A stretch of 63,997 bases of DNA, the filler included, from Ionaspis alba (lineage: Eukaryota), in NCBI GenBank assembly GCA_964255285.1. It is 6 parts of 6 records of this genome, joined end to end, with 100 filler letters (N's around TTAATTAATTAA, not from the genome) between each part and the next. Parts side by side here need not be neighbours in the genome. Positions count along the whole stretch, not along the records: positions 22,365 to 33,428 come from CAXUUL010000573.1; 5 more parts are not named here. One strand, given 5' to 3'. A program made the translations under genes and the position numbers. The notes under the pieces were generated by a model. It did not search any database. It was not told the origin of the DNA and saw only the letters and a program-made list of their open reading frames with translations. Positions 22,365 through 40,285 of the stretch are shown piece by piece (the stretch's first letter is position 1; each line of letters begins with the position of its first letter).

Positions 22365-23558
22365 TAGTAGAGAAAAGACCCACCCATCAAGTAAAAATAA
22401 ATACTATGATCCACCAAATAATCCATTCCCGGCTTCACTCCCTGTGGCGTACTGAAGTACACCCTATACATCTTGCAAACAGCCTTGATCTGGTCCCACG
22501 TCCCCGTCAAGCCGACCATGTTCTCGTGGAACTCCTTCAGATAAGTCTTCAGTACCGAGGGAGTATCGCGAGCTGGATCGCATGTGATGAATAAAGGAAG
22601 TAGAGTTGGGTTGGAGGGATTATTAGCGGGAAGTGCCTCGTTCACGAGATCCAGCATGCTGGCCATTTTATCGAGTTCTTCGGGGCAGATGTCGGGGCAG
22701 TGGGTAAAGCCGAAGTAGACCTGTTCTCGGAAGAAAAGTATCAGCATTTCCACCACCGCCATTCTTCCCTTGATGTCCTAGGACCACTCCCCAATGACTC
22801 TCACACCACTCTTTGACCTGCAATAATATTCGAAACCCTATTCCTCCTCTCGCTACTCATCGGTACCGCCGCTTCCCTCAATGGGGAATACCAAAAGCTC
22901 ACTCACCAAGCTAAACCTCCCCCGCATCTCCTCCTCACTCTTCCAGACCTTTCCATCCTGATCCACGAGCTCAAATTTCCCTCCTACTTTCGGCTTCCCA
23001 ACCCCCTTCGACGCATCCGCTATCCGTTTTCGCTCCATCCGCGCCTTCTCGTATCGGAAATACATAATCATTCCCAGGCCTGTGGAGAGGAAGACGACGA
23101 CGGAGAAGATAGAGAAAGGCTATGAGGTAGGAGAGTCAGCTTGATTATTGCGAGATATGGCGTTCCACGAACAAGGAAGGGATAAGAACAGGCTCAGAGG
23201 CGAGGAGAGCGGAGTGGCATACACCTATTTTGTATCTCGAGCGAGCTTCTTCCACGGTTTTGTAGCCTCTTCTTGTCTCTCTGGCGGCTAATTCGGGCTG
23301 GAAGTTGAGTCGGAGTGATGGTTGACGCCGGTGCTGTAGTATAAAGTGGTAGCATCTTCTGATAGGGTATCTCTTTGTGTACGGTGTCCGGTGCGAGGCG
23401 CATCTTATGTTAGATGCTTGCGGTCCCTGGTTGGCTGATGAAGAGGAAAAAGGCAGGCGGAAAGTGGCGTAGGGGCATCGAGAGCCATTTTCCGCAGCAG
23501 GTGACCGTGTAAATATCTTTGAGGTGGAGCTTAGTGCTCGACTTACTGGTGGAGGCAT
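22365..23558 (-). CDS. SCO1: Cytochrome c oxidase copper chaperone Sco1, multi-exon, 3'-truncated
   Basis: GKPKVGGKFELVD, YFGFTHCPDICPEEL (CxxxC), FITCDPARD, DYLVDHSIYFYLM. Confidence 0.95.
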
Positions 23559-24038
23559 GATACAGGTAGAAGACGGGAAAGTCAACAGTACCTGCCTCCG
23601 AGCTCGCTGACTTCCAATAATTTTCTCAAAGTGGCTAGCGCGGCTCTGCCCAGTCTACGAATTTTGACATAGCGAGCGTATACCAGAAAGCAGGAAATAT
23701 TCTGTGGAGGGTGATACAAGACAAAGATCCATTCATTCTCTCCCTACTTCTATGCTAGAATACCTCTCCAGTAATAGAACATCTTTTTTGACACCAGATT
23801 CCCCTTTCCTCCATCCTCGGGGCACGCTTCGAACCGTGTAAAGAGTCCTCAATCTAAAGACCAATGCTGCGTAATATGCACACGAGAAGGATAGAGGTGG
23901 TGAGAGGTGTCACACCGCCACGCTTAAAAACGCATGCGAAGCAGAAATGGTAGGCTAGCAAAGCATAGGCCTGGGAGATATTGGTTAGCACATTGAGTTG
24001 GCTTAGCCTCATTTCCAGTCGCTACTCCGATGGCCGGC

Positions 24039-26297
24039 TCAGTGCAATCCTCTGCTTCGTTCACTGGCCCGAGATGGACTGGTCCTGCTCCTCTCATCCT
24101 CCTCCAACACATCGCTGAGTCGAGTCGGATGGTGATGTCTCGGTACGCCTTCCCAGCCATATCCACTTCCGCTGTAATCCGCCGGTGCGCCTTGCCCATT
24201 ACTCGAGTACACAACGCCAGATGGTCTTCCTCCTCCCGCAGTGGCCGTGGAGCCTCGTCCATATTCGACACCACTGACACTACTTCCATAACGTTGGCCA
24301 TACATACGTTCTCGGTCAAGCGCTTCTTGAACATCGTACTCGTCGCTGTCTTCGCTGCGAGTGCTGGTTGGGAAGATGAGGGGTCGACCTTGTGCATCTC
24401 GGCGAATCTCGCCACGCTCATCAAGGAGATATTCTGCCTCTTCACTGAGGTCGTCGTCTACTGAAGGAACATAAGACCGTTCGTCAGCTTCGGTGATCCG
24501 AGGTTGAGTGGCGCTTTGTCCGAGTAGAGAGGTAGCGGTGCCTTGCTGTTGATAAAAGGGGCCAGAGGATGGGGTTTGAAGCGCCGCCCCTCCCGGACCA
24601 TAGGCCAAGTAGGTTCCTCCACTCGCAGGAGCAGTCGCGGTAGCTTGCACACCAGGCCCTTGGGGAGCCGCGGACAGTGTACCTGTGGCTGCTCGTGCAG
24701 CTTGTATTGCGGCAGCAGATGTGCTCGAAGATTGCTGGTGCGGCTGGGACGAAGCTTGTCCGAGTGGTACACGTGAAGAAGGGTCATGCCCACCCTCGGT
24801 GAATGGATCGGTATCAGTTTCAGATCTTGCTGGATCGTAATTAGTGTAGCCCACTTCGCCTTCCCCGGGACTTTCCACATCTTGCTGTGCCTGCCGGAGT
24901 GTGCTCCCACCTAGACTTGTTGCTTCCCCCGATGGGCGGGCTGTGCTCGTTTGTCGACTGATATTTCCTTGCACCATCGGCACAACCTGAACACCGCCGA
25001 CGAAGATCGGCTCTCCTTTTTTCAAAGATGTGGTCCGGTCCCGTTCGGCTTGCTCAATTCTTCCGATCTCCTCCCACCCTCTCCTCGCTTCATCCCTTGA
25101 GATCTGGAGCTCACGTCTCATCTCTTTGACCATCTGTTCTGCGTTGCGTTTGATTTCATCCGCTGAAGCCCTTTCAGCTTGCACAACCGCACCTCCATTC
25201 ATTTCCGCACGAGCGCGCCTTTCTTCCGAAAGGGCGGCCTCTAGCTGCGCAATCCGTTCCTGTGTTTTTTCTTGTTCTGATCTAGTTTCATAGAACCACC
25301 TTTGGAATTTGCGTTCGGACGATGCTCGTAGTCTTTGCAACTCAACCACAGCATGAAAGAGATTTGCCCCTGCAGCGGAGAGATCCGTAACTTGGCGCGC
25401 CAATTGTTGGTTGAGTGGCTGACCGCTCATCTCGTCGCCATTACCTTCGAGTCGCTTGATCCAATAGTTTGTAAGCCCTTCCCAGTGTGACGAAAGTGTC
25501 TCCCATCTTTCAAACGCATGAGGAAACGATGACGTGTTGGTACGCGGCTGTTGTCCCGAGGATGGTGCAACTTGGGGGCGTTGCGAAGACGCAGCCGCCG
25601 ATTGCCCTGGTTGAGCTTGATTAGTTCCACCGGGCACAGAAGTCAGTCGGGTTTGTGACTGTTGCTGTTGGGTACTATATGTTGCTGATGCAGCTCGGGA
25701 GTTCTGGGGTTGCACTGGTCTTGGGACAGGCTGTGTTGCCGAGGCAGCCCTGTTCCTGGTTGCAGTTTGTGGTATATTGCTATTGTCCAGGGTTGTGCGT
25801 GCGACGTTCGAGAATTCCTGTGTACGGCTACCACTTGGTGGGTACGTGGCTGGTTGCACACCCGGAGGAGGATTGGCTCGAGGTGCGTTCCCACCACTCA
25901 CTCTCTCACTGCGTCGTCGCTCGTCCGCGTCCCGTGACGTCGACGCTTCTACCGTGGTTCTCCTGCCTCCGCCGGCTCTTACATTGCCTCCTCCAGCCCC
26001 AGTGATACCACCAACATCCGCAACGCCAGCAGCGGCAGCTCTTCTCTCAGCACTTATTCTCCTTTCTTCTTGTATTCGTCTCTGCTCTGCCTCTTGTTGT
26101 TCTTTTTGTCTTGCTTCGATCTCTGCCTTTTTCTCATCCCGCTCCCTTCGTCGTTTCATGATGTCAGTGGGGGTAACGACACGGGCAGCGGCTTGTTGGG
26201 GTACTGGCACAGGTCCAGCAGCAACTCGAGAGCCGCCATTCTGGGCGCGCGCGCTCCCGCTGCCTGGCACCGCTAGTCCGCCACCAAGGTCGGCCAT
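24039..26297 (-). CDS. Uncharacterised coiled-coil/disordered protein, 752 aa from the first AUG; frame stays open upstream to 26828 (see findings)
   Basis: Long ORF with an ordered core FPHAFERWETLSSHWEGLTNYWIKRL...AVVELQRLRASSERKFQRWF and terminal HHHPTRLSDVLEEDE. Confidence 0.85.
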   Translation of the reverse strand: MADLGGGLAVPGSGSARAQNGGSRVAAGPVPVPQQAAARVVTPTDIMKRRRERDEKKAEIEARQKEQQEAEQRRIQEERRISAERRAAAAGVADVGGITGAGGGNVRAGGGRRTTVEASTSRDADERRRSERVSGGNAPRANPPPGVQPATYPPSGSRTQEFSNVARTTLDNSNIPQTATRNRAASATQPVPRPVQPQNSRAASATYSTQQQQSQTRLTSVPGGTNQAQPGQSAAASSQRPQVAPSSGQQPRTNTSSFPHAFERWETLSSHWEGLTNYWIKRLEGNGDEMSGQPLNQQLARQVTDLSAAGANLFHAVVELQRLRASSERKFQRWFYETRSEQEKTQERIAQLEAALSEERRARAEMNGGAVVQAERASADEIKRNAEQMVKEMRRELQISRDEARRGWEEIGRIEQAERDRTTSLKKGEPIFVGGVQVVPMVQGNISRQTSTARPSGEATSLGGSTLRQAQQDVESPGEGEVGYTNYDPARSETDTDPFTEGGHDPSSRVPLGQASSQPHQQSSSTSAAAIQAARAATGTLSAAPQGPGVQATATAPASGGTYLAYGPGGAALQTPSSGPFYQQQGTATSLLGQSATQPRITEADERSYVPSVDDDLSEEAEYLLDERGEIRRDAQGRPLIFPTSTRSEDSDEYDVQEALDRERMYGQRYGSSVSGVEYGRGSTATAGGGRPSGVVYSSNGQGAPADYSGSGYGWEGVPRHHHPTRLSDVLEEDERSRTSPSRASERSRGLH

Positions 26298-28720
26298 TGA
26301 GGCGTTCTCTTCGACTTGGTCGGCCGTGAAAGGGAAGGGAGTCCTGATGGCCTCCTCAAGGGCGTAGAGTATTGCAGAGGCTGTACGCCTAGAGATATGT
26401 GTACTTCTTCGCGGCCAATATGAAGGGTCAGGTGAGGTTCGCGGTGGCCCTGGTGTGGTAGATCCGTCTCCTTCGTCACTGAACGGTTGTGGAGGCTGTA
26501 GCGGTTCGGCGACAATTGGTGGAGGTATGCGTTGCTCAGGTGCAGCAGCAGAAGCTGCGCGGCGTCGTGTTGGGATCTGTTCTTCGAATCTTGGAGTTCG
26601 TCGAAGAGTGTGTGCGCTTCCTGATGAGCTCGAAGGTCTTGAGGGTAAGCGTGAAGATGGTTGGTGCTGCTGGCGTTGCGGTAACGGTTGCGTAAATGGT
26701 TCGTAAGCTTCGTAGATCTCGTCACCGGGTCGTGGAATTGGACGAGACAGAGCTGACGATTGCTTCGGACTGAAAACGGGAAACTGATACAGTGCGAATA
26801 ATGTACAATTGTTTTGAGTAGATTTGTGTTAACTATACAAAACCCGAGTGGATGTTGAACCCGGCAGAGTTGCAGTGAGGGTCACCAAGACCGTGTGACT
26901 GAGACGGCGCAAAGTGGGAAATGTGGATTCTGTGCAGGCATCGTAAGAACAGATTGGAAAAAGCCTGGCAGAATAGACAATGCGCAAGACTTAGTGACTT
27001 CGCAATGAGGCTGGGAGTTTTGTGGTGGCTAGACGAATAATCTTGTGTTTCGCGAAGCTATCGATATTGGGGGGTTGGGGATTTTGGAACCACGCACCAT
27101 TGCATGACAACACAGCCAATTGATTTTTCGATTTCCAGTTTTAAGCTCCCATCAAGCTCGACACTGTCCTGGAGTTGCCAAATGGCTCAATTGCTGCTGT
27201 AGAATCGACAGATTCCAAGTGGTGCCCGTTTGCTTGTCCAACACCGCTCACAACCCCCATCCACCACCACCTACCGGCCTACTTCGAAGTGCCAATTTGG
27301 CCTGGGTTGGTGAATTGATGAGAGAAGAATGGCAGGATTAGATCTTTCTCCAAGACCGGGCTTCGTCTGTTTGAATTTCTGCAGTGCTCGAATTGGACCT
27401 TCGTTGGCGACAAACTCGTCAGACCCCAGACATTTGCGACCGCAGGCTAACGCTCCTCGCAGTGAGCCAGCGTAGACCTGAGGAAATATGGCCTTGACTG
27501 CATAGTCGTCATTGAAGTCGAATATGAGACAGATCCGTCAGAAGGGATCAAGAAGTCCTCGAGATCATTGAGAAGACCAAGTCGACATTAATGTGCGTTT
27601 GCGGAACCAGCTCCAAAGGCTGGCGGGCGATGTGTTGGCAAATAAGCACCCCCCTGCTGCATACATGTATGCTCTAGCAGGCCAACCGCCAAAGCACCAA
27701 CGACATTCATCTTCCATTTTCCTTCGTGGTCGGGTCGTCGTCCGTTCAACATTAAGGAGAATGCGATGCTAGACCTCTCCGAGACTTGGAGAATGAATGC
27801 GTGCTCTTATCGGGAAGAACGAGATGAACAGTGCGACCAACTGGCAGAGAGGCTTTTGCGGGGACGGCACTATGGGGTTCATCCATGGTTCTTGCTTTCA
27901 ACGTCAGACCCAATCATGTTGCTGGGAGCTACCCAGTCGTTTCTCCCGACACCACACGTCGACCAGCTGGCCCTCCCACCTACCCCCGCGCACAGTTGAC
28001 AGGTCTCACTCATGCGTGGGGCAGCCATCTGTGTAATAAATGTTGGCAACGGCGTGGATGGTTGTCCTGGAAGCTCGGTATGCACGGAGACATTCTCAGC
28101 CACTGGCTTTATGGAATGCAGGTACCCCGGATGTCTAAGACGTCTTTTCCCAGTTTGATAGAACCCGCCATCGAGTACTGACGATGATCTGGGTCTCGAT
28201 CGAGTGTTGTCCCTGACTACCTCAAGGAGACTGCACAAACCAACTGTATTCCTGTGGTGCAATGAATGCTGTCTGTCCAAGCAATACACCTTGGGATCGT
28301 TTTGACATGTGGCTTTTGTACTGGTTCACGGTGCTCTGAAGTCGTGCTAGGCCGTTACCTGTTATCGCTTTGCACACAAATTCCTGCAGCATCACCAGAT
28401 ACTGGCAAGTCATGAGTGAGACAATGAGATGCATCCTCTGACTTGTCGTTGCGACTGCAGATGTCAAAATCTCGTTACCCTTGCATAGATCTTCAACATT
28501 CCCCCGATTGTCTTGCATAGTAGGCCGGGTTTCCTTCCTATTCGTGGTGACCAGGACATTTCTCTCTACTACCGGCCTCTACTATGGCGTTCGTGCGGAG
28601 AGTAGCTCCCCAAATCGTGAAAAGATGGCCATCAAGAGTGCCATGGTTTGATTAGCCGCTTTTATCGCTGATCCTTAAGATGCCGTGCCCTCGTCCTACC
28701 TGTTCCTACCTTCTCAGAAG

Positions 28721-29794
28721 ATGCCAATCATGTTTCAGCCACATGTTATGACAACTACCTCCGAAATGCTCAAACTTGTTTCCTCTATCCAGGAATTTGA
28801 TCGCCCACCTCCTGACCTGAACCACATTCACGATAGCCACTTCACCCATGGATGGCGCTGTGCCCGAAGATCAACTTCGATACCTCCACCTCCTCCCCCT
28901 TCACGACATTCACCTACTGTAACACCGAGTCCACCAAATGTCCAGCCTTCTAAGCCTGGTACATGGCCTCTTTGTCAGGCTTCGAATCCATTTCTGTCAT
29001 CGCCAATGGATCGTACTAAAGGACCTGGACTGCCTCCGATGGAGAGCATGACTTTCACATATCGGAGCCAGGACCATAGTCGTGACTATTCGTTCCCGCT
29101 TCCAGGTCAAAGCCATCAATCAAGAGCCAGCGATGAATGCATATCTATTTGCTCGTGGACCAAAGGCGATGACTCGACAGAGATAGGCACACGCAGTCCC
29201 GGAAGGTCACTATGTAGTGAAGCGGACACAGTCATAGATGGAGACGCCATGATTAGCCAGAACTACATCATGTGCAAGAGACTCGCTCAGCAATCGCAGT
29301 CCAATACGAGTCCTGTGTCTCGAGCTTCTACAAAGGCCGCTTTCCCTCCACGTACCTCCTCAAACTTTCAAGTCGTCAACAATGAGTCAATCCGCTTCTC
29401 TGATGCGATTGGACCGCCATCAGGATTTCCGTCTGGCGGTGGTACACCCAGTCGAATCCAGGAAAAAGGCATCTCCCCGAGGCGTCCAGGGCTGTTTGCA
29501 GATATATCGAAGGAGCAAATACCAAAGTCCCCTACATCTCCCACTTTCGATGCACTCCCTTTGTTGCTAGCTTCGGCTTCTCCGCCTCACCGCTACGAGA
29601 CACTTCCAGCAGTTTTACAATCTAACGAAGTCTCTTGCATGGATTGGTCCGAGGATGAAGACGATAATAACGATGGCTTGGCCAGGAGCTCCCTTTTACC
29701 GTTTCTGTCAGGTAAAAGAAGTAAAGGACGAGGTGGCAAACCTTTTCGAAGAAGCTTGACTGGTGCCTTCAGGCGACTATCTTGTTCTACCTGA
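28721..29794 (+). CDS. Hypothetical Ser/Pro-rich disordered protein
   Basis: ORF of about 357 codons; C-terminal EVSCMDWSEDED and basic tail; start uncertain. Confidence 0.6.
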   Translation: MPIMFQPHVMTTTSEMLKLVSSIQEFDRPPPDLNHIHDSHFTHGWRCARRSTSIPPPPPPSRHSPTVTPSPPNVQPSKPGTWPLCQASNPFLSSPMDRTKGPGLPPMESMTFTYRSQDHSRDYSFPLPGQSHQSRASDECISICSWTKGDDSTEIGTRSPGRSLCSEADTVIDGDAMISQNYIMCKRLAQQSQSNTSPVSRASTKAAFPPRTSSNFQVVNNESIRFSDAIGPPSGFPSGGGTPSRIQEKGISPRRPGLFADISKEQIPKSPTSPTFDALPLLLASASPPHRYETLPAVLQSNEVSCMDWSEDEDDNNDGLARSSLLPFLSGKRSKGRGGKPFRRSLTGAFRRLSCST

Positions 29795-30613
29795 GCTTCG
29801 TCGGACTTGGGATTTACGACGATTGCCTATAGTCCGAAGTCGGGGGAGCCAGAGTTGGGTGCTTACATCTCACAAGGCAGTGTGGCGGGCATGCTAGCTG
29901 CATCGAACATGTCCTTCTCTTCAATCCTAGTTACATCTCACGATATCATGATCTTACGACATTAACGCTATCCGCAGCCCCAGCATAGGCATTACAAACG
30001 GCGTAGTTATCCTCACGGCACTGACTACGTCGAGCGTCAGAAAAACATTACCACAAGCATTTCGGGCTCAACGAGTTTTTAATTCAGCAGCATAGTGGAT
30101 AGAATAGCATCTAGAAACATCTCGGAACCATAACCTCAATGAAGCCGATAGAGCATATGTGCGACTATTTCACCTCCACTCAATCTCACAATGATTCTGG
30201 CATCCCAAACTTTCTACATAATGATCTTCTAACCATTCAACTCTATCACATGACCCTTACCGCTCATTGCTTGCTCCTAGAGTAGACTGTTCTTCCACGA
30301 TTGTGCAGCATCCAAGCACTTAGTAGAGTCGTTAGCTCCGCATAATACTCCACCCTGCCACGAACCGTCATGCAGCACGCTAGGCGAGGTCTTTAGGCAA
30401 TGTTCCATCGTGCAAGGCATGTTCTATGCTCTATGCACCCATAGGACTTGGAGAATCACGGAGGCCGAAAGATCCGGGAAGAAGTGAAGAACTCGTTTGA
30501 AATGTTCGCAGAGTTCACTGCACGCGGAACGATCAGTAGCGACGACGGAATCTTCCTTCCTATTCATGGCTTCCAGACTCTTTGCTTGTGTTGAGCTCCT
30601 CTGTTGAGGCTTC

Positions 30614-32381
30614 TCAGGGCCGAGTACCGGGCTGAGAGAGATCTAGGGACTTGATAGTTGATGCTTCGTCCTCATCGCTAGCATTCACCGTCTGGGTTAT
30701 GCATTCGGTTCCGGCGCTCAAGGAAGATTCATTCGAGGTAGTCATTCGGGGGTCCAGGGGTTCTTCCAATTTAGACTGCTCCGTTGTAGACTTGTCGAAC
30801 ATAGAGTCCTTCAGTGATATTACTCTAAGGCTGGAGTGCTCTATCGAAGTATCGTCCATCGTATAAGCCTGGAGTGTCGTTCTGTTTGCCGCTGCGCCAT
30901 TGGTATCAGCTTCGGTCAAGGTGGAGTCTTTCTCAAGGTCTCCTCCAAGATTAGCATTGTACCATGGGTGTGCCAATGATTCGGCTATTGTCATTCGCTC
31001 TTCCGGATTGTACTTCAGCATTTTCAGTAGCAGGTCGGCAAAGACTTCCATCTCAGCCATCGATGAAATTGCTCTTCTGCGATAACGACTTCTGACACCC
31101 GGTCGATCTGGGTCATCTCGGAGCGGTGTTCCAAGCAGCGCGACGGGCGTGCTCATCATCTCTAGCAAGTAAGGTCTCCCTCTAACCGGGCTTGTGCCAG
31201 TATGTACTTGGAGCGACTTGGCTTCATGGTCAAAGCAGGCTGAGCGACCTTTCCACGCTTGCCACCATTGATCAGGTAGTCGACCAAGAAGTCTCACAAA
31301 CTCCTTTATAATCTCGGCAGGATTACCGTTGAACATCTCAAACAGTGGAAGACCAGTCCGAATAGTATATATTGTACAGGCAAGGGCCCAAACTTCGGAT
31401 CCCAAACCAAGCTTAGATTCGAACATCAATTCAGGCGAGCAGAATTCGAAAGGTGCTCCGGAGCCGTTGGGAGGGGGGTCTTCGAGATAGAACGCTTCTC
31501 CGAAGTCTATGATTATAATCCGACTGGTCCAGTAATGAGGATCGACCTTATCCAAGAGTGCCGCGTTCACTATATACGCTGGCCCTGTGGGCTCAACTGG
31601 GCCGTCATCCAACCTTCGAAGCGGGTTAATTATCGGCTCACCCAGTCTTTGAAGTACTTCCTCCTCGCTCCATGAGTCGAAGTTTGCTAAGCAGAGAAGT
31701 ACATTAGACGGCTTCAAATCTGAACCATAGTACAGTTAGAATTTGATATTAGAGGAATCGAGGTGTAAGCGTACCGCCGTGGCCTACTCCGTTACTGTGG
31801 AGAAACTGCAACCCTAGAGACACTTGCAAAGCCATCTTACGTGGAAGGTCGACCGGTAATTCATGATGGAGCCAAAGCTCTGAGACTCTAGGTCCTCCCA
31901 CAGGCATGACAAGACATAGATGCCTGCCATTTGGGCCGTCGATCCAGAAGTGATGCAGTGGCCAAGCTATGTGGTCTCGTCCCGGATGCTGTTCGCCAGA
32001 TGCAGTTGAAACTGCCGCCTTCAACGACGCAAGGAGCTTCAATTCTCGGGAATCTTCCACTGATACCTCGGCCATCATGATCTTGAGCGCAACATAGCCG
32101 TCTTGGCCATGGGCTCTTGCAAGCCATACAGTAGCAAAGCCTCCATGCCCAAGTTTGTGAATAATACGGTAGCGCTCGCTGTCTCCGTACGTATCTCCAA
32201 GATGCACTGGGTGGAATCCCCCACTCCGGTAATCTTCTATATTTTCTTCATCATCCCATGGACCAGGCTTATAGATCCGTCGAGACGGATTGAGATTGGG
32301 CAGAACTCGAGGACAGTCCTCGTTGGATGTTTGAGTGGAAGGCGTGGATGATGAAGCCGACTGTGATGGTGAGGACGACAT
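30614..32381 (-). CDS. SRPK-like (CMGC) Ser/Thr protein kinase, 2 exons
   Basis: EDYRSGGFHPVHLGD, KLGHGGFATVWLA, VALKI, HG/DLKPSN across the intron, IIDFGEA, SPELM. Confidence 0.92.
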
Positions 32382-32909
32382 AATGACACTAAGAAGTCCC
32401 GGTGCCTCACTTAAGGAGGACGCTTCCAGGGGAAGCTGAGGATAGGCAATCTCTCTGCCAGAATTGTTGTGGAAACCTTGTTCAGAAATGCGAGGTTGAG
32501 GGTAAACTATCTTAACACGTGACACGGATAAGTAACACAATCGAGCAAAGGTTCTTGCTGTTGAGACAACGGCAGCACATTGAAGCACAGTACTCATAGA
32601 GAAAAAGCTGCTCCTCTCCACGTAGTGTTGAGATAGTGGCTTTTGAGATGCTTACTTCTCATTCTTGCCTTATTCGGAAACACAAGCCCACCGGATCGCG
32701 TGATTGAAATCGCTTACCTGCCTTACTTTAGGGTTAGGCGAATTGGTGACAACACACTTTCAGTCATTTAACTTTGCTTTATTAGATTACCAATGTCGCA
32801 GGGTCAAGTAAGTCTTTTTTCAGTGACCTGTCGTGCTGCAAGGTTCATAGACTCTCCTCCTTGTTACTCAGTTTGCTGGATTCTGCATTCTTGCCCTCCG
32901 TTCAAAGCA

Positions 32910-33428
32910 ATGACCGTGTACAGAGAAGATAGCATTCGGGACACGAAGGGGACTGGTACTGTGGAAGACCCATTTGTGTGCAACCTTGTGTCTTGTCATA
33001 TGGTAGCTAGTGCTTTATATTGTTTGATTCAAATTATGATTTTAAAGAAGCTAAATGAAAACAGATCTATTGGCTGATCGGGAGACCATCTGGCACAAAA
33101 GAGCCTCGCGCTGAAGGGAATGAGAATGTCGTACGAGGAGCTGCACGAGCTGATGGTTATACACATATTTGGATTCGGTATGTCGAACAGAACCAATCTG
33201 GACACCGTATGACCATCTGTCTAAACTGACGCGTTCCTCAGCCATCTGAATCACAAAACCACTCACTCCGTGATAGCAGGACGCCATGTTTGGACTCCCG
33301 TTGACTCCTGTATCACAGTCTATTTCAGCACCGACCCGGCTAAACCCGCAAAAGAAGGACATGTATATTGCGTGGAGGACGACAATGTGCCAATCCGGAT
33401 GATGACTGCTGAGGAACAGCAGTCTGCA
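32910..33428 (+). CDS. Hypothetical spliced protein, 3'-truncated (exons 32910-33002, 33065-33177, 33242->33428)
   Basis: Two GT..AG introns (62 and 64 nt) with consistent phases give one continuous frame. Confidence 0.6.
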
Positions 33429-38710: not shown

Positions 38711-40285
38711 CTAGTATCTTCGTTTACTGCGTGGATCATCGTAATCATCACCCTCATGGTACCGTTTCCTGCTAGCGTAGTCGTCTTCTCGTGGATCTCT
38801 AGGACGGCTGCCGTATCCTCGGTCCCGGTCCCGGTCACGATCTCGGTCTCCACGATCTCGGTCGCTATACCCACCCTCTCTTGGTCTTACCGGCTCACGG
38901 TTGCCACCAGTGAAGCCTCCTGAGCGGCTATCACCTCTGTCACCATAGCCACGACTACTTCCTCCACCGCGATAAGAGGATCTGTCGTCATATGAGCCAT
39001 TTCGTCTTGGATCACCATACCCACCACCGTTGATTGGTTCCGGAGCCGGGGATGAGCCGTTTATGCCGCCATTTGCGGGAGGCCCGCCGTAGCCTCCACC
39101 ACCGTACCCACCACCGTAACCACCACGATTGCCGCCTGGACCGGAAGGAGCATTTGCAGGGGGTACAGAGCCATAACCATTAGGACTACCACCATATCCG
39201 CCTCTTCCTCCGCCACCGAACCCACCTCCACCTTGGTATCCAATACCTCCTCTTCCACCTCCGTAGCCACCTCGATCTCCGCCACGGAAGCCTCCTCTAA
39301 ATCCTCCGCCACGGTCACCGAAACCACCTCGGAAGCCGCCTCGGAAGCCACCCGGCCCGGCAGGAGCGGCAAATCCACCAATTCCGGAAGGACGAGCCGG
39401 CATTGTTTTCGTATATCCTCTACCACCGAAACCACCTCCGAATCGCCTAGGTCGCCATCCCTTAACGGTTCGGCCGCGCTCGACATCGACGACAACGCGG
39501 CGATCTTTGATACGTATACCATCGGTTTCTTTATAGGCAGCTGTAGTAACGCAAAGAGCAAGGCCCTCGTGTCAGTCAAGCAATTAAGGACATTTACCTT
39601 GTAGATGGGGAGGTGAGGGGAGTCGCTGTTTCAGCTGTGATGATGGATTTTAGGGAAGCTTTACCCTTCATATCTTTTTCTCGCTCATAAACCACAAATG
39701 CGTAGCCCCGATGTGGCTTCTTTTTCTTCTTGGATTTCTCGCCACTTTCAGGCTCATGGGTGTCGGTAACGATCCGTATCTAGAGCCGTGAACATATTAG
39801 CAGCAGTGCACATCGAGCAAGGTCAACGCTATTTCCTACCCTTTCAATAGGTCCAAATCGTCCAAACTCTCTTTCCAAATCCTGCTCTTTGGTATCATAA
39901 CTCAACCTCCCCACAAACAATGTCTTGAGTGCATCGCCTCGAATATTTGGATCCTCGCTCGGCCGATCTATGTTTGTGTCATCAGTAATCATCCAGTGTT
40001 GTATGCAGAGATCCGATTTCACATACAACCCTTTGCATCTTCACCAGACACCTCCTGCTGTTTCTCCCTCTTCTCTGCCTTGATCCGAAGCTTTCTTTCT
40101 AGCCAGCTCTCTGTAGGTTCATAGGGAATTTCCGAGTAGTCTTCTATTGCTGAGAGGAATTGCGCAACCCCACTGATGTTGTTTGTCTTGCGTTCTTCAG
40201 GCGCATGATCACTTGGAGGGAGATAGCGGAGGCCGGGGCGTGCAGCGAAGAGGGCAAGGAGATTGGGCGGGAGCTTATCTGTCAT
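38711..40285 (-). CDS. SNP1: U1 snRNP 70K protein (4 exons)
   Basis: [54 protein letters not shown]- and RD-rich tail. Confidence 0.96.

Follow-up and report, generated by a model that had tools for sequence, protein, structure and literature searches.

A conserved AUG-less N-terminal extension with candidate CUG starts in a coiled-coil protein gene of Ionaspis alba

We analysed a stretch of 63,997 nucleotides (nt) of DNA from Ionaspis alba (GenBank assembly GCA_964255285.1; six parts of six records joined end to end with filler), here called the window, for the start of a minus-strand gene at 24039-26792, in the part that comes from record CAXUUL010000573.1 (positions 22,365 to 33,428). The gene encodes an uncharacterised coiled-coil protein, whose family was seen in three classes of Pezizomycotina. 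Judged from the sequences of the family, the protein most likely has approximately 165 conserved N-terminal residues that are encoded without an AUG and start at a CUG codon, and most database models of the family are most likely wrong or truncated at their start. Comparison of orthologous loci showed that this extension was coding, that it was AUG-less throughout the family, that AUGs were depleted from it in all frames and that two NTG sites were conserved. From these patterns we infer that initiation occurs at the NTG codons, that a short form starting at the first AUG is also made and that the ratio of the forms would follow start-codon stringency. We assign a probability of roughly 0.7 to the reading in which near-cognate initiation would produce forms of 917 or 903 amino acids (aa) and leaky scanning to AUG 26297 would produce a form of 752 aa.

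In the mechanism that we propose, a true N-terminal region of about 150-165 residues would be encoded in a stretch of the mRNA with no AUG in any frame. Scanning ribosomes would first reach CUG 26792 and CUG 26750, both of which have a purine at -3, and a fraction of them would initiate at these codons with initiator Met-tRNA, yielding the 917- and/or 903-aa proteoforms. These long proteoforms would carry a disordered, probably regulatory, N-terminal domain. The other ribosomes would scan approximately 450-495 AUG-free nt and would initiate at the invariant AUG 26297 to give the 752-aa form that is held in the databases.

A conserved coding extension depleted of AUG codons

The minus-strand open reading frame (ORF) of the gene extended from stop to stop over 24039..26828 (929 codons), and its first in-frame ATG, at 26297-26295, opened the 752-aa sequence of P0001, the database protein of the window locus. 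An initial annotation of this DNA had described the frame as remaining open upstream of that ATG as far as a TAA at 26831-26829, with no ATG in any frame at 26298-26938, and inspection of the sequence confirmed both statements. The minus strand was free of ATG in any frame from 26941 to 26297. No other gap on either strand of the window was as long as these 644 nt, those ranking after it measuring 542, 470 and 465 nt, and ATGs in the window numbered 1098 on the minus strand and 1057 on the plus strand. The same annotation had expected about 10 ATGs in the run, a figure that assumes uniform composition; the local mononucleotide composition predicted 6.5.

Orthologous loci were gathered from metagenome-contig DNA, in which 420 stretches matched the pattern, 187 encoded a relative and 80 were kept. 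The N-terminal 260 residues were matched in 74 of the 80 (there was no match in L023, L032, L064, L065, L069 and L079), and 70 of the 74 had an ORF of at least 400 aa, with L050 dropped at a contig end (276 aa) and L021, L022 and L024 dropped by the length filter. Together with the window, the 70 loci were reduced to 41 non-redundant loci, none sharing above 90% identity with another across the final 80 residues of the extension. The extensions of the 41 loci were 107-215 codons long, that of L035 being cut by the end of its contig. An intron interrupted the extension in L042, L044, L055 and L056, which were the shortest or oddly framed loci. In these Pleosporales-like sequences the intron was about 55-60 nt long and was located between SLQLRQ and QQAAEFYR, with GTACAT, GTAACG or GTAATG as the donor, CTAAC or GTAAC as the branch site and TAG as the acceptor. 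The intron of L056 contained an ATG, and the exons flanking it contained none.

The extension was conserved as protein in Lecanoromycetes, Dothideomycetes and Eurotiales. Many orthologous proteins spanned 96-100% of the 929-codon frame and aligned through the extension (protein alignments A1 and A2), in which the motifs DE.Y..YE, QRQQ, RPSSSSGS..LRRTP.FE and ISRRTASAILYALEEAIR.P.FT.D..EENAS-M were conserved. The ratio of non-synonymous to synonymous substitution rates (dN/dS) was 0.13-0.45 in the extension (computable for 16 of 17 locus pairs) and 0.03-0.17 in the downstream coding sequence (CDS) of those pairs whose dS was unsaturated there. Third-position differences dominated in the extension, as in the pair L038-L039, whose differences by codon position numbered 9, 4 and 28. 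Thus the frame was open in orthologues and substitution in it was biased towards synonymous changes, two features for which the initial annotation had proposed to search. The dN/dS values and the third-position excess indicated that the extension is coding sequence under purifying selection in the main frame, weaker than that on the core of the protein.

It could instead be supposed that the extension is an untranslated leader in this locus, that its conservation comes from RNA-level elements and that the 752-aa protein alone is made. We consider this very improbable. Within a pair, the extension did have a lower proportion of synonymous differences (pS) than the CDS (0.23 vs 0.52, L038-L039), which hints at constraint at the nucleotide level, but the frame was open in all 41 loci, dN/dS was well below 1 with an excess of third-position changes, and amino-acid motifs were conserved across three classes. 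In addition, predicted folds around the CUGs were no stabler than those of shuffled sequence (z = -1.3, -0.9 and -0.4). Within a coding extension, the low pS and the rarity of downstream in-frame NTG codons are hints of an extra nucleotide-level constraint beyond the avoidance of ATG.

The depletion of AUGs was apparent in every frame. The first in-frame ATG was the codon of the same conserved Met (M[SA][DNG][LMIF]) in 41 of 41 loci, and this Met was invariant in both protein alignments; that each extension lacks in-frame ATGs is a consequence of its definition, but the shared identity of the first Met is not. The 41 extensions (20,892 nt) contained 21 out-of-frame ATGs, 20 in frame +1 and a single one in frame +2. 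Shuffling of codon order gave an expectation of 85.7 +/- 8.0 and synonymous resampling with each locus's own CDS usage gave 141.9 +/- 7.8, with none of 1000 replicates as low as 21 in either case, and a first-order Markov model predicted 128 ATGs over all frames. The loci are related phylogenetically and these shuffle and binomial-type comparisons overstate their independence, which tells against the proposed mechanism to that extent. Kinship does not affect the comparison of each extension with the CDS next to it, made within the same genes: size-matched CDS directly after the Met contained 141 out-of-frame ATGs (134 expected from its own shuffle) and 78 in-frame ATGs. The AUG depletion that the initial annotation had suggested looking for in orthologues was therefore strong and extended to all frames (21 vs 85.7 or 141.9).

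Near-cognate codons as candidate start sites

Near-cognate codons were conserved at two sites in the frame, NTG-1 and NTG-2, which are both CTG in the window (Table 1). The CTG at 26792-26790 had been put forward in the initial annotation as the start of a 917-aa product, with a purine at -3, and the sequence agreed with this in each respect. The CTG at 26750-26748 is also in frame and also has G at -3; it was absent from that annotation. For the comparison of these sites between species, the denominators are the 37 loci that had a residue at the NTG-2 column.

At NTG-2 there was an NTG codon in 32 of the 37 loci (17 CTG, 13 GTG and 2 TTG), with a purine at -3 in 36 of 37. As background, 38% of the Leu codons and 23% of the Val codons in these CDSs are NTG. 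The first base of the site varied between C, G and T, with a resulting exchange of Leu and Val, and the TG was constant, with both bases invariant or no less than 90% conserved in alignment A3 of the DNA. Amino-acid conservation also began at NTG-2. At the upstream site, the column of the CTG first proposed, an in-frame NTG was present 10-16 codons before NTG-2 in 32 of 37 loci (25 TTG, 5 CTG and 2 GTG), with a purine at -3 in 30 of these 32. The chance expectation was 14% per 9-codon window, from a downstream in-frame NTG background of 1.67% per codon. The spacing of the two sites was exactly 14 codons in 15 loci, the window included, and an in-frame stop was located 3-12 codons upstream of NTG-1 in 20 of the 32. 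At least one of the two sites was present in 36 of 37 loci; the exception, L044, has an intron in its extension and a GTG in the upstream exon. The base at +4 of the NTG sites was mostly T or A, not the preferred G.

Lineages differed in which of the sites they retained. In L021, L022 and L024 an in-frame stop lay between the two sites, 4 codons before NTG-2 in L021, whose ATG-free run was 684 nt. In the Alternaria-like clade NTG-2 was lost (TTA or CTA), NTG-1 was kept as GTG or TTG, and the peptide TSSDP.ELANI was conserved. Because conservation starts at NTG-2 and one lineage has an intervening stop, CTG 26750 appears to be at least as good a start candidate as CTG 26792. We conclude from this comparison that either site could serve for initiation, that NTG-2 would be the more general candidate and that the window has a CUG at both. 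In Neurospora, CUG is the most efficient of the near-cognate codons.

The two isoforms of 917 and 752 aa envisaged in the initial annotation gained support from each of the comparisons between orthologues that had been suggested there, the conserved near-cognate codon included, with two qualifications: a 903-aa product starting at CTG 26750 is at least equally eligible as a long form, and the 752-aa start would be used for the reasons given below.

Table 1. Positions of the putative start codons, extension and associated features in the window.
Feature	Position	Strand	Details
NTG-1 CTG	26790..26792	-	Context ttcgcaCTGtat, G at -3; would start the 917-aa proteoform
NTG-2 CTG	26748..26750	-	Context tcagctCTGtct, G at -3; L of SALSRP; would start the 903-aa proteoform
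AUG-less N-terminal extension	26298..26789	-	164 codons after the CTG of NTG-1; disordered; Ser/Pro/Arg-rich
Predicted helix in extension	26343..26390	-	Residues 135-150 of the 917-aa form; within the RRTASAILYALEEAIRTP motif
Conserved first AUG	26295..26297	-	Context gcctcaATGgcc; would start the 752-aa short proteoform, the current database model
Rest of CDS including stop codon	24039..26294	-	Common to all proteoforms; long coiled coil, invariant block DLSAAGANLFHAVVELQRLRASSERKFQRWF
In-frame TAA	26829..26831	-	Closes the frame 12 codons upstream of the CTG of NTG-1
Upstream ATG and 19-codon ORF in another frame (MPAQNPHFPLCAVSVTRSW, then stop)	26882..26941	-	Candidate upstream ORF, or part of the 3' end of a possible 5'-UTR intron with the boundary after cttacgATGcctgcaCAG

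Two further ideas about these sites were set aside. A stem of GUCUCGUC and GACGAGAU immediately after the CUG of NTG-2 was tried as a start-enhancing RNA hairpin and was rejected, as the three folds computed were near those of shuffled sequences (z = -1.30, -0.90 and -0.39). Annotated starts with M at these positions in proteins of the ena, lgn and jgi sets were considered as an interchange of ATG and CTG, and this too was rejected because gene callers write GTG and TTG as M. For example, P0061 begins MQLPALSRP where L003 reads VQLPALSRP, with a GTG codon, and the start of P0241 coincides with the GTG of NTG-2.

Upstream ATG codons and possible first exons

Several observations weigh against initiation at the near-cognate codons followed by leaky scanning. 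Conserved ATGs, specific to each clade, were present 70-370 nt before the frame opens, with the peptides M[SPQ]AQN in Lecanoromycetes, MAPLL in Pleosporales and M.PET in Penicillium. The upstream ATG of Pleosporales is in a strong context (gcagcaATGg), and several NCBI gene models splice conserved upstream ATGs into the main frame. In three Dothideomycete NCBI models (P0178, P0182 and P0187), an ATG that looks contiguous lies some 20 codons upstream of NTG-1. The NTG-1 site itself was TCG in L004, CTC in L001 and TTA in L074, and the interval from NTG-1 to NTG-2 had no codon periodicity (26/25/23 by position, pooled from 7 pairs), so protein-level constraint did not support translation from NTG-1 outside Pleosporales. 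Finally, the conserved AUG had a pyrimidine at -3 (37 of 41 loci) and T at +4 (35 of 41), a weak context that would not be expected of an optimised start.

The upstream ATGs raise the alternative that the protein starts at an ordinary AUG on a short upstream exon that is spliced to the extension, the candidates in the window being ATG 26941 or the ATGs at 27105/27100 beside a GTGCGT donor. If so, the sole anomaly of the locus would be its incomplete annotation. Such exons are used in the NCBI models of Xylographa, Pleopsidium, Alternaria and many Penicillium species, and some relatives (L042, L044, L055 and L056) do have an intron inside the extension. After the TAA the window offers four AG acceptor candidates, of which cccgttttcag/T (exon start 26769) follows a pyrimidine tract. 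Despite these points in its favor we regard a spliced first exon as unlikely. The window allows 125 frame-compatible combinations of ATG, GT and AG with 4 possible acceptors, and in none of them does a CTRAY branch motif precede the acceptor by 6-50 nt. Use of the better donors would require introns of 314-1200 nt, and an option with an intron of 116 nt has a weak GTGACC donor. The view of the initial annotation that the window contains no good upstream ATG exon was thus upheld, and an exon of this kind is unlikely there. The position of the acceptor was not conserved either, as there was no YAG at a fixed position upstream of NTG-2 across 37 loci and 3 of the 37 were without any YAG between the stop and NTG-2. 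The predicted first exons vary between species and join the extension at different points. Moreover, a spliced first exon would leave unexplained the approximately 4- to 7-fold depletion of out-of-frame ATGs, the absence of Met codons and the two NTG columns with a purine at -3.

The clade-specific ATGs may lie within an intron of the untranslated 5' region (5'-UTR) or upstream of the start of transcription. In the Alternaria-like loci L038, L039 and L052, the sequence from about -300 to -120 relative to the start of the frame has the order GTAAGT, CTAAC and CAG. The Pleosporales ATG lies between this donor and acceptor, and the upstream ATG of the three loci (gcagcaATGg, MAPLL) is probably inside a 5'-UTR intron; the NCBI Alternaria model P0121 starts at the MAPLL ATG. 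To splice in the upstream ATG, the Penicillium models have to rely on GTTTGG, a poor donor, and to treat as intron some 290 nt in which the best-conserved leader motif, CCAGCCATCCCAATTAACCAGCCACC, is found. This also argues against the upstream exon. Some 190 nt before the frame starts, Penicillium loci L048, L049, L058 and L080 had in common a strongly conserved motif, CCAGCCATC(C/T)CAATTAA(T)CCAGCCACC, with a CCAAT box in it. This CCAGCCATC leader or promoter motif is downstream of the upstream ATG that the gene models use.

In the window the upstream ATG nearest to the frame, at 26941, opens an ORF of 19 codons, as had been stated in the initial annotation. It sits in cttacgATGcctgcaCAG, and L004, L017 and L021 are similar. 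Candidate upstream ORFs (uORFs) were 19, 18 and 18 codons long in the window, L004 and L017, and 33-69 codons long in Pleosporales, and neither their frames nor their lengths were conserved. The motif CTTAC(G/GC)ATG...GC.CAG, with an exon boundary drawn after the CAG (window 26930-26950, minus strand), was conserved at the nucleotide level in the distant Lecanoromycete loci L004, L017 and L021. From its sequence this motif could equally well be a short uORF (M[SP]AQN..H) or a branch point and acceptor whose splicing would remove the ATG. A motif shared by the window and three Alternaria-like loci upstream of a GT donor, ATTGGCTGT, was considered as a promoter or exon-1 element and was treated as a chance match; a relaxed pattern, ATTGG[CT]TG, occurred in only 5 of 41 loci.

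The short form, protein features and comparison with known systems

We infer that AUG 26297 is used for the short isoform because the AUG-free path leads to it, there is no other Met codon upstream and its Met is invariant. A different view is that the gene has one functional product, the long protein made from a near-cognate start, with AUG 26297 as a conserved internal Met and the short form as a by-product. Depletion of AUGs would then only avoid out-of-frame initiation and decay of the mRNA. The weak context of this AUG noted above agrees with such a view, as does the conservation as protein of the residues around the Met (EENASMSDL). We nevertheless find it improbable: no in-frame Met occurred over about 150-200 codons in 41 of 41 loci, against 78 in the size-matched CDS, and the short form holds all the invariant blocks of the coiled coil. 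In-frame AUGs would be harmless to mRNA stability, and their absence therefore points to a first AUG whose position is important.

If the long and the short forms are both functional products of near-cognate initiation and leaky scanning, the arrangement might constitute a translational switch present in at least three Pezizomycotina classes. We offer this more specific proposal only tentatively. The switch would consist of an AUG-free leader of about 0.5 kb with two near-cognate starts, each with a purine at -3, and of a deliberately weak AUG after them. The ratio of a long form with a phospho-regulatable N-terminal domain (conserved motifs RRTAS and LRRTP) to a short form without it would be set by start-codon stringency (eIF1/eIF5 levels, stress and possibly an upstream short uORF or a 5'-UTR intron). 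If this speculation is correct, the locus would report naturally, in vivo, on how stringent initiation is in filamentous and lichen-forming fungi and would be, beside cpc-1 of Neurospora crassa, a second such case, one without uORF overlap.

The structure predicted by AlphaFold2 from the 47 sequences of alignment A2 was mostly disordered (mean pLDDT 49.6), and residues 426-591 of the 917-aa form made up a long coiled coil. In the extension, helices were predicted at residues 135-150, where the means of 10-residue blocks were 65-74 pLDDT, and at 158-166; the remainder was below 50. Residues S134, T137, A140, L145 and R150, within or near the first of these helices, were invariant in alignment A2. 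The ordered helix that the initial annotation had seen at the end of the extension thus received moderate support, confined to these two segments.

Searches with the protein found no Pfam family above its cut-off (the ENT domain scored 17.4 bits against a cut-off of 28.5, and Dcc1 10.8 against 22.9), and the matches in the ESM Atlas were clusters of hypothetical proteins of Ascomycota only. The nearest relatives were those of the lichen-forming Lecanoromycetes Xylographa, Lambiella and Ptychographa, with 59-62% identity, and one unnamed protein with 78%. The family was also found in Dothideomycetes (Alternaria, Bipolaris, Pyrenophora, Parastagonospora and others) and in Eurotiales (many Penicillium and Aspergillus species, including A. 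fumigatus). Full-text literature searches, whose coverage mostly excluded subscription journals, returned papers on cpc-1 and on non-AUG initiation in general and nothing on this family.

The closest parallel is cpc-1 of N. crassa and its Pezizomycotina homologues. In the sections of Ivanov et al. (2017; PMC5487733) available to us, these are described as having an extension of approximately 160-180 codons without an in-frame AUG, dN/dS of 0.285 in the extension and 0.144 in the main ORF, and the conserved near-cognates CUG, AUU and ACG in good context; the context positions that matter most are said to be -3 (A) and +4 (G). Like cpc-1 as portrayed there, the present gene has, across Pezizomycotina, a frame that stays open for about 160-180 codons before the annotated AUG and contains no in-frame AUG. 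In both cases purifying selection is weaker on the extension (here 0.13-0.45 vs 0.03-0.17), several near-cognates in good context are conserved, among them a CUG for which some species have UUG, and annotations disagree on the start. The differences are also considerable. According to the same sections, cpc-1 is a bZIP transcription factor with a leader in which two conserved and functionally tested uORFs overlap or precede the extension, its conserved codons are CUG, AUU and ACG, and its near-cognate initiation is backed by in vitro, reporter and ribosome-profiling evidence. The family described here encodes an uncharacterised coiled-coil protein, any uORFs of its leader are putative, the whole 450-650 nt is AUG-free in every frame, the conserved codons are NTG (CUG, GUG and UUG) at two sites, and the case is made by sequence comparison.

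Conserved non-AUG extensions of human genes, in the portion of Ivanov et al. (2011; PMC3105428) at hand, show the same signature of an open frame upstream of an annotated AUG together with a near-cognate codon, in mammals and in other gene families than that studied here. The dual-localised proteins of yeast covered in the accessible text of Monteuuis et al. (2019; PMC6582344) likewise have long and short proteoforms from one mRNA, by use of a near-cognate and a downstream AUG. The yeast extensions are short targeting peptides, in contrast to the extension of about 165 disordered residues with conserved motifs in the present family.

Existing gene models of the family reflect the uncertain start. 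Of the 360 hits listed, 47 were assigned by our start classifier to a start at the internal Met or close to it, and other database models have species-specific predicted first exons, prokaryote-style GTG or TTG starts, or a partial flag, which at least 8 NCBI entries carry. Which N-terminus is the true one is important for functional study of the protein, as the extension holds the only conserved basic phosphorylation-like motifs. With its clean signature of about 0.5 kb free of AUG in dozens of species, the gene would be a second case, beside cpc-1, of deeply conserved near-cognate initiation in Pezizomycotina. As the family is present in Aspergillus, Penicillium and Alternaria, the prediction is testable in these genera and would then be transferable to lichen fungi, which are experimentally hard.

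Some minor observations were made in the window and among the database entries. The 542-nt ATG-free run, on the plus strand at 39063-39604, is antisense to a Gly/Arg-rich ORF of the minus strand (window 38711-39630), which has RGG repeats after an RNA-binding-like N-terminus; we rejected this run as a comparable case, attributing it to an effect of composition unrelated to the extension. The names of P0126 (Essential protein Yae1) and P0245 (two-component sensor protein histidine protein kinase) seem to be mistaken annotations, their sequences offering nothing in support of either name. A search of sequencing runs for the stretch gave no match in any run recorded as RNA; of three runs compared as DNA contigs, X1 covered it completely, X2 matched it in a few short identical pieces and in short matches to one longer contig, and X3 did not match. 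The contig from run X1, near-identical to the window and probably from the source sample, differed from the window by G>C and T>A at 27304 and 27311, positions that are 470-480 nt upstream of the frame.

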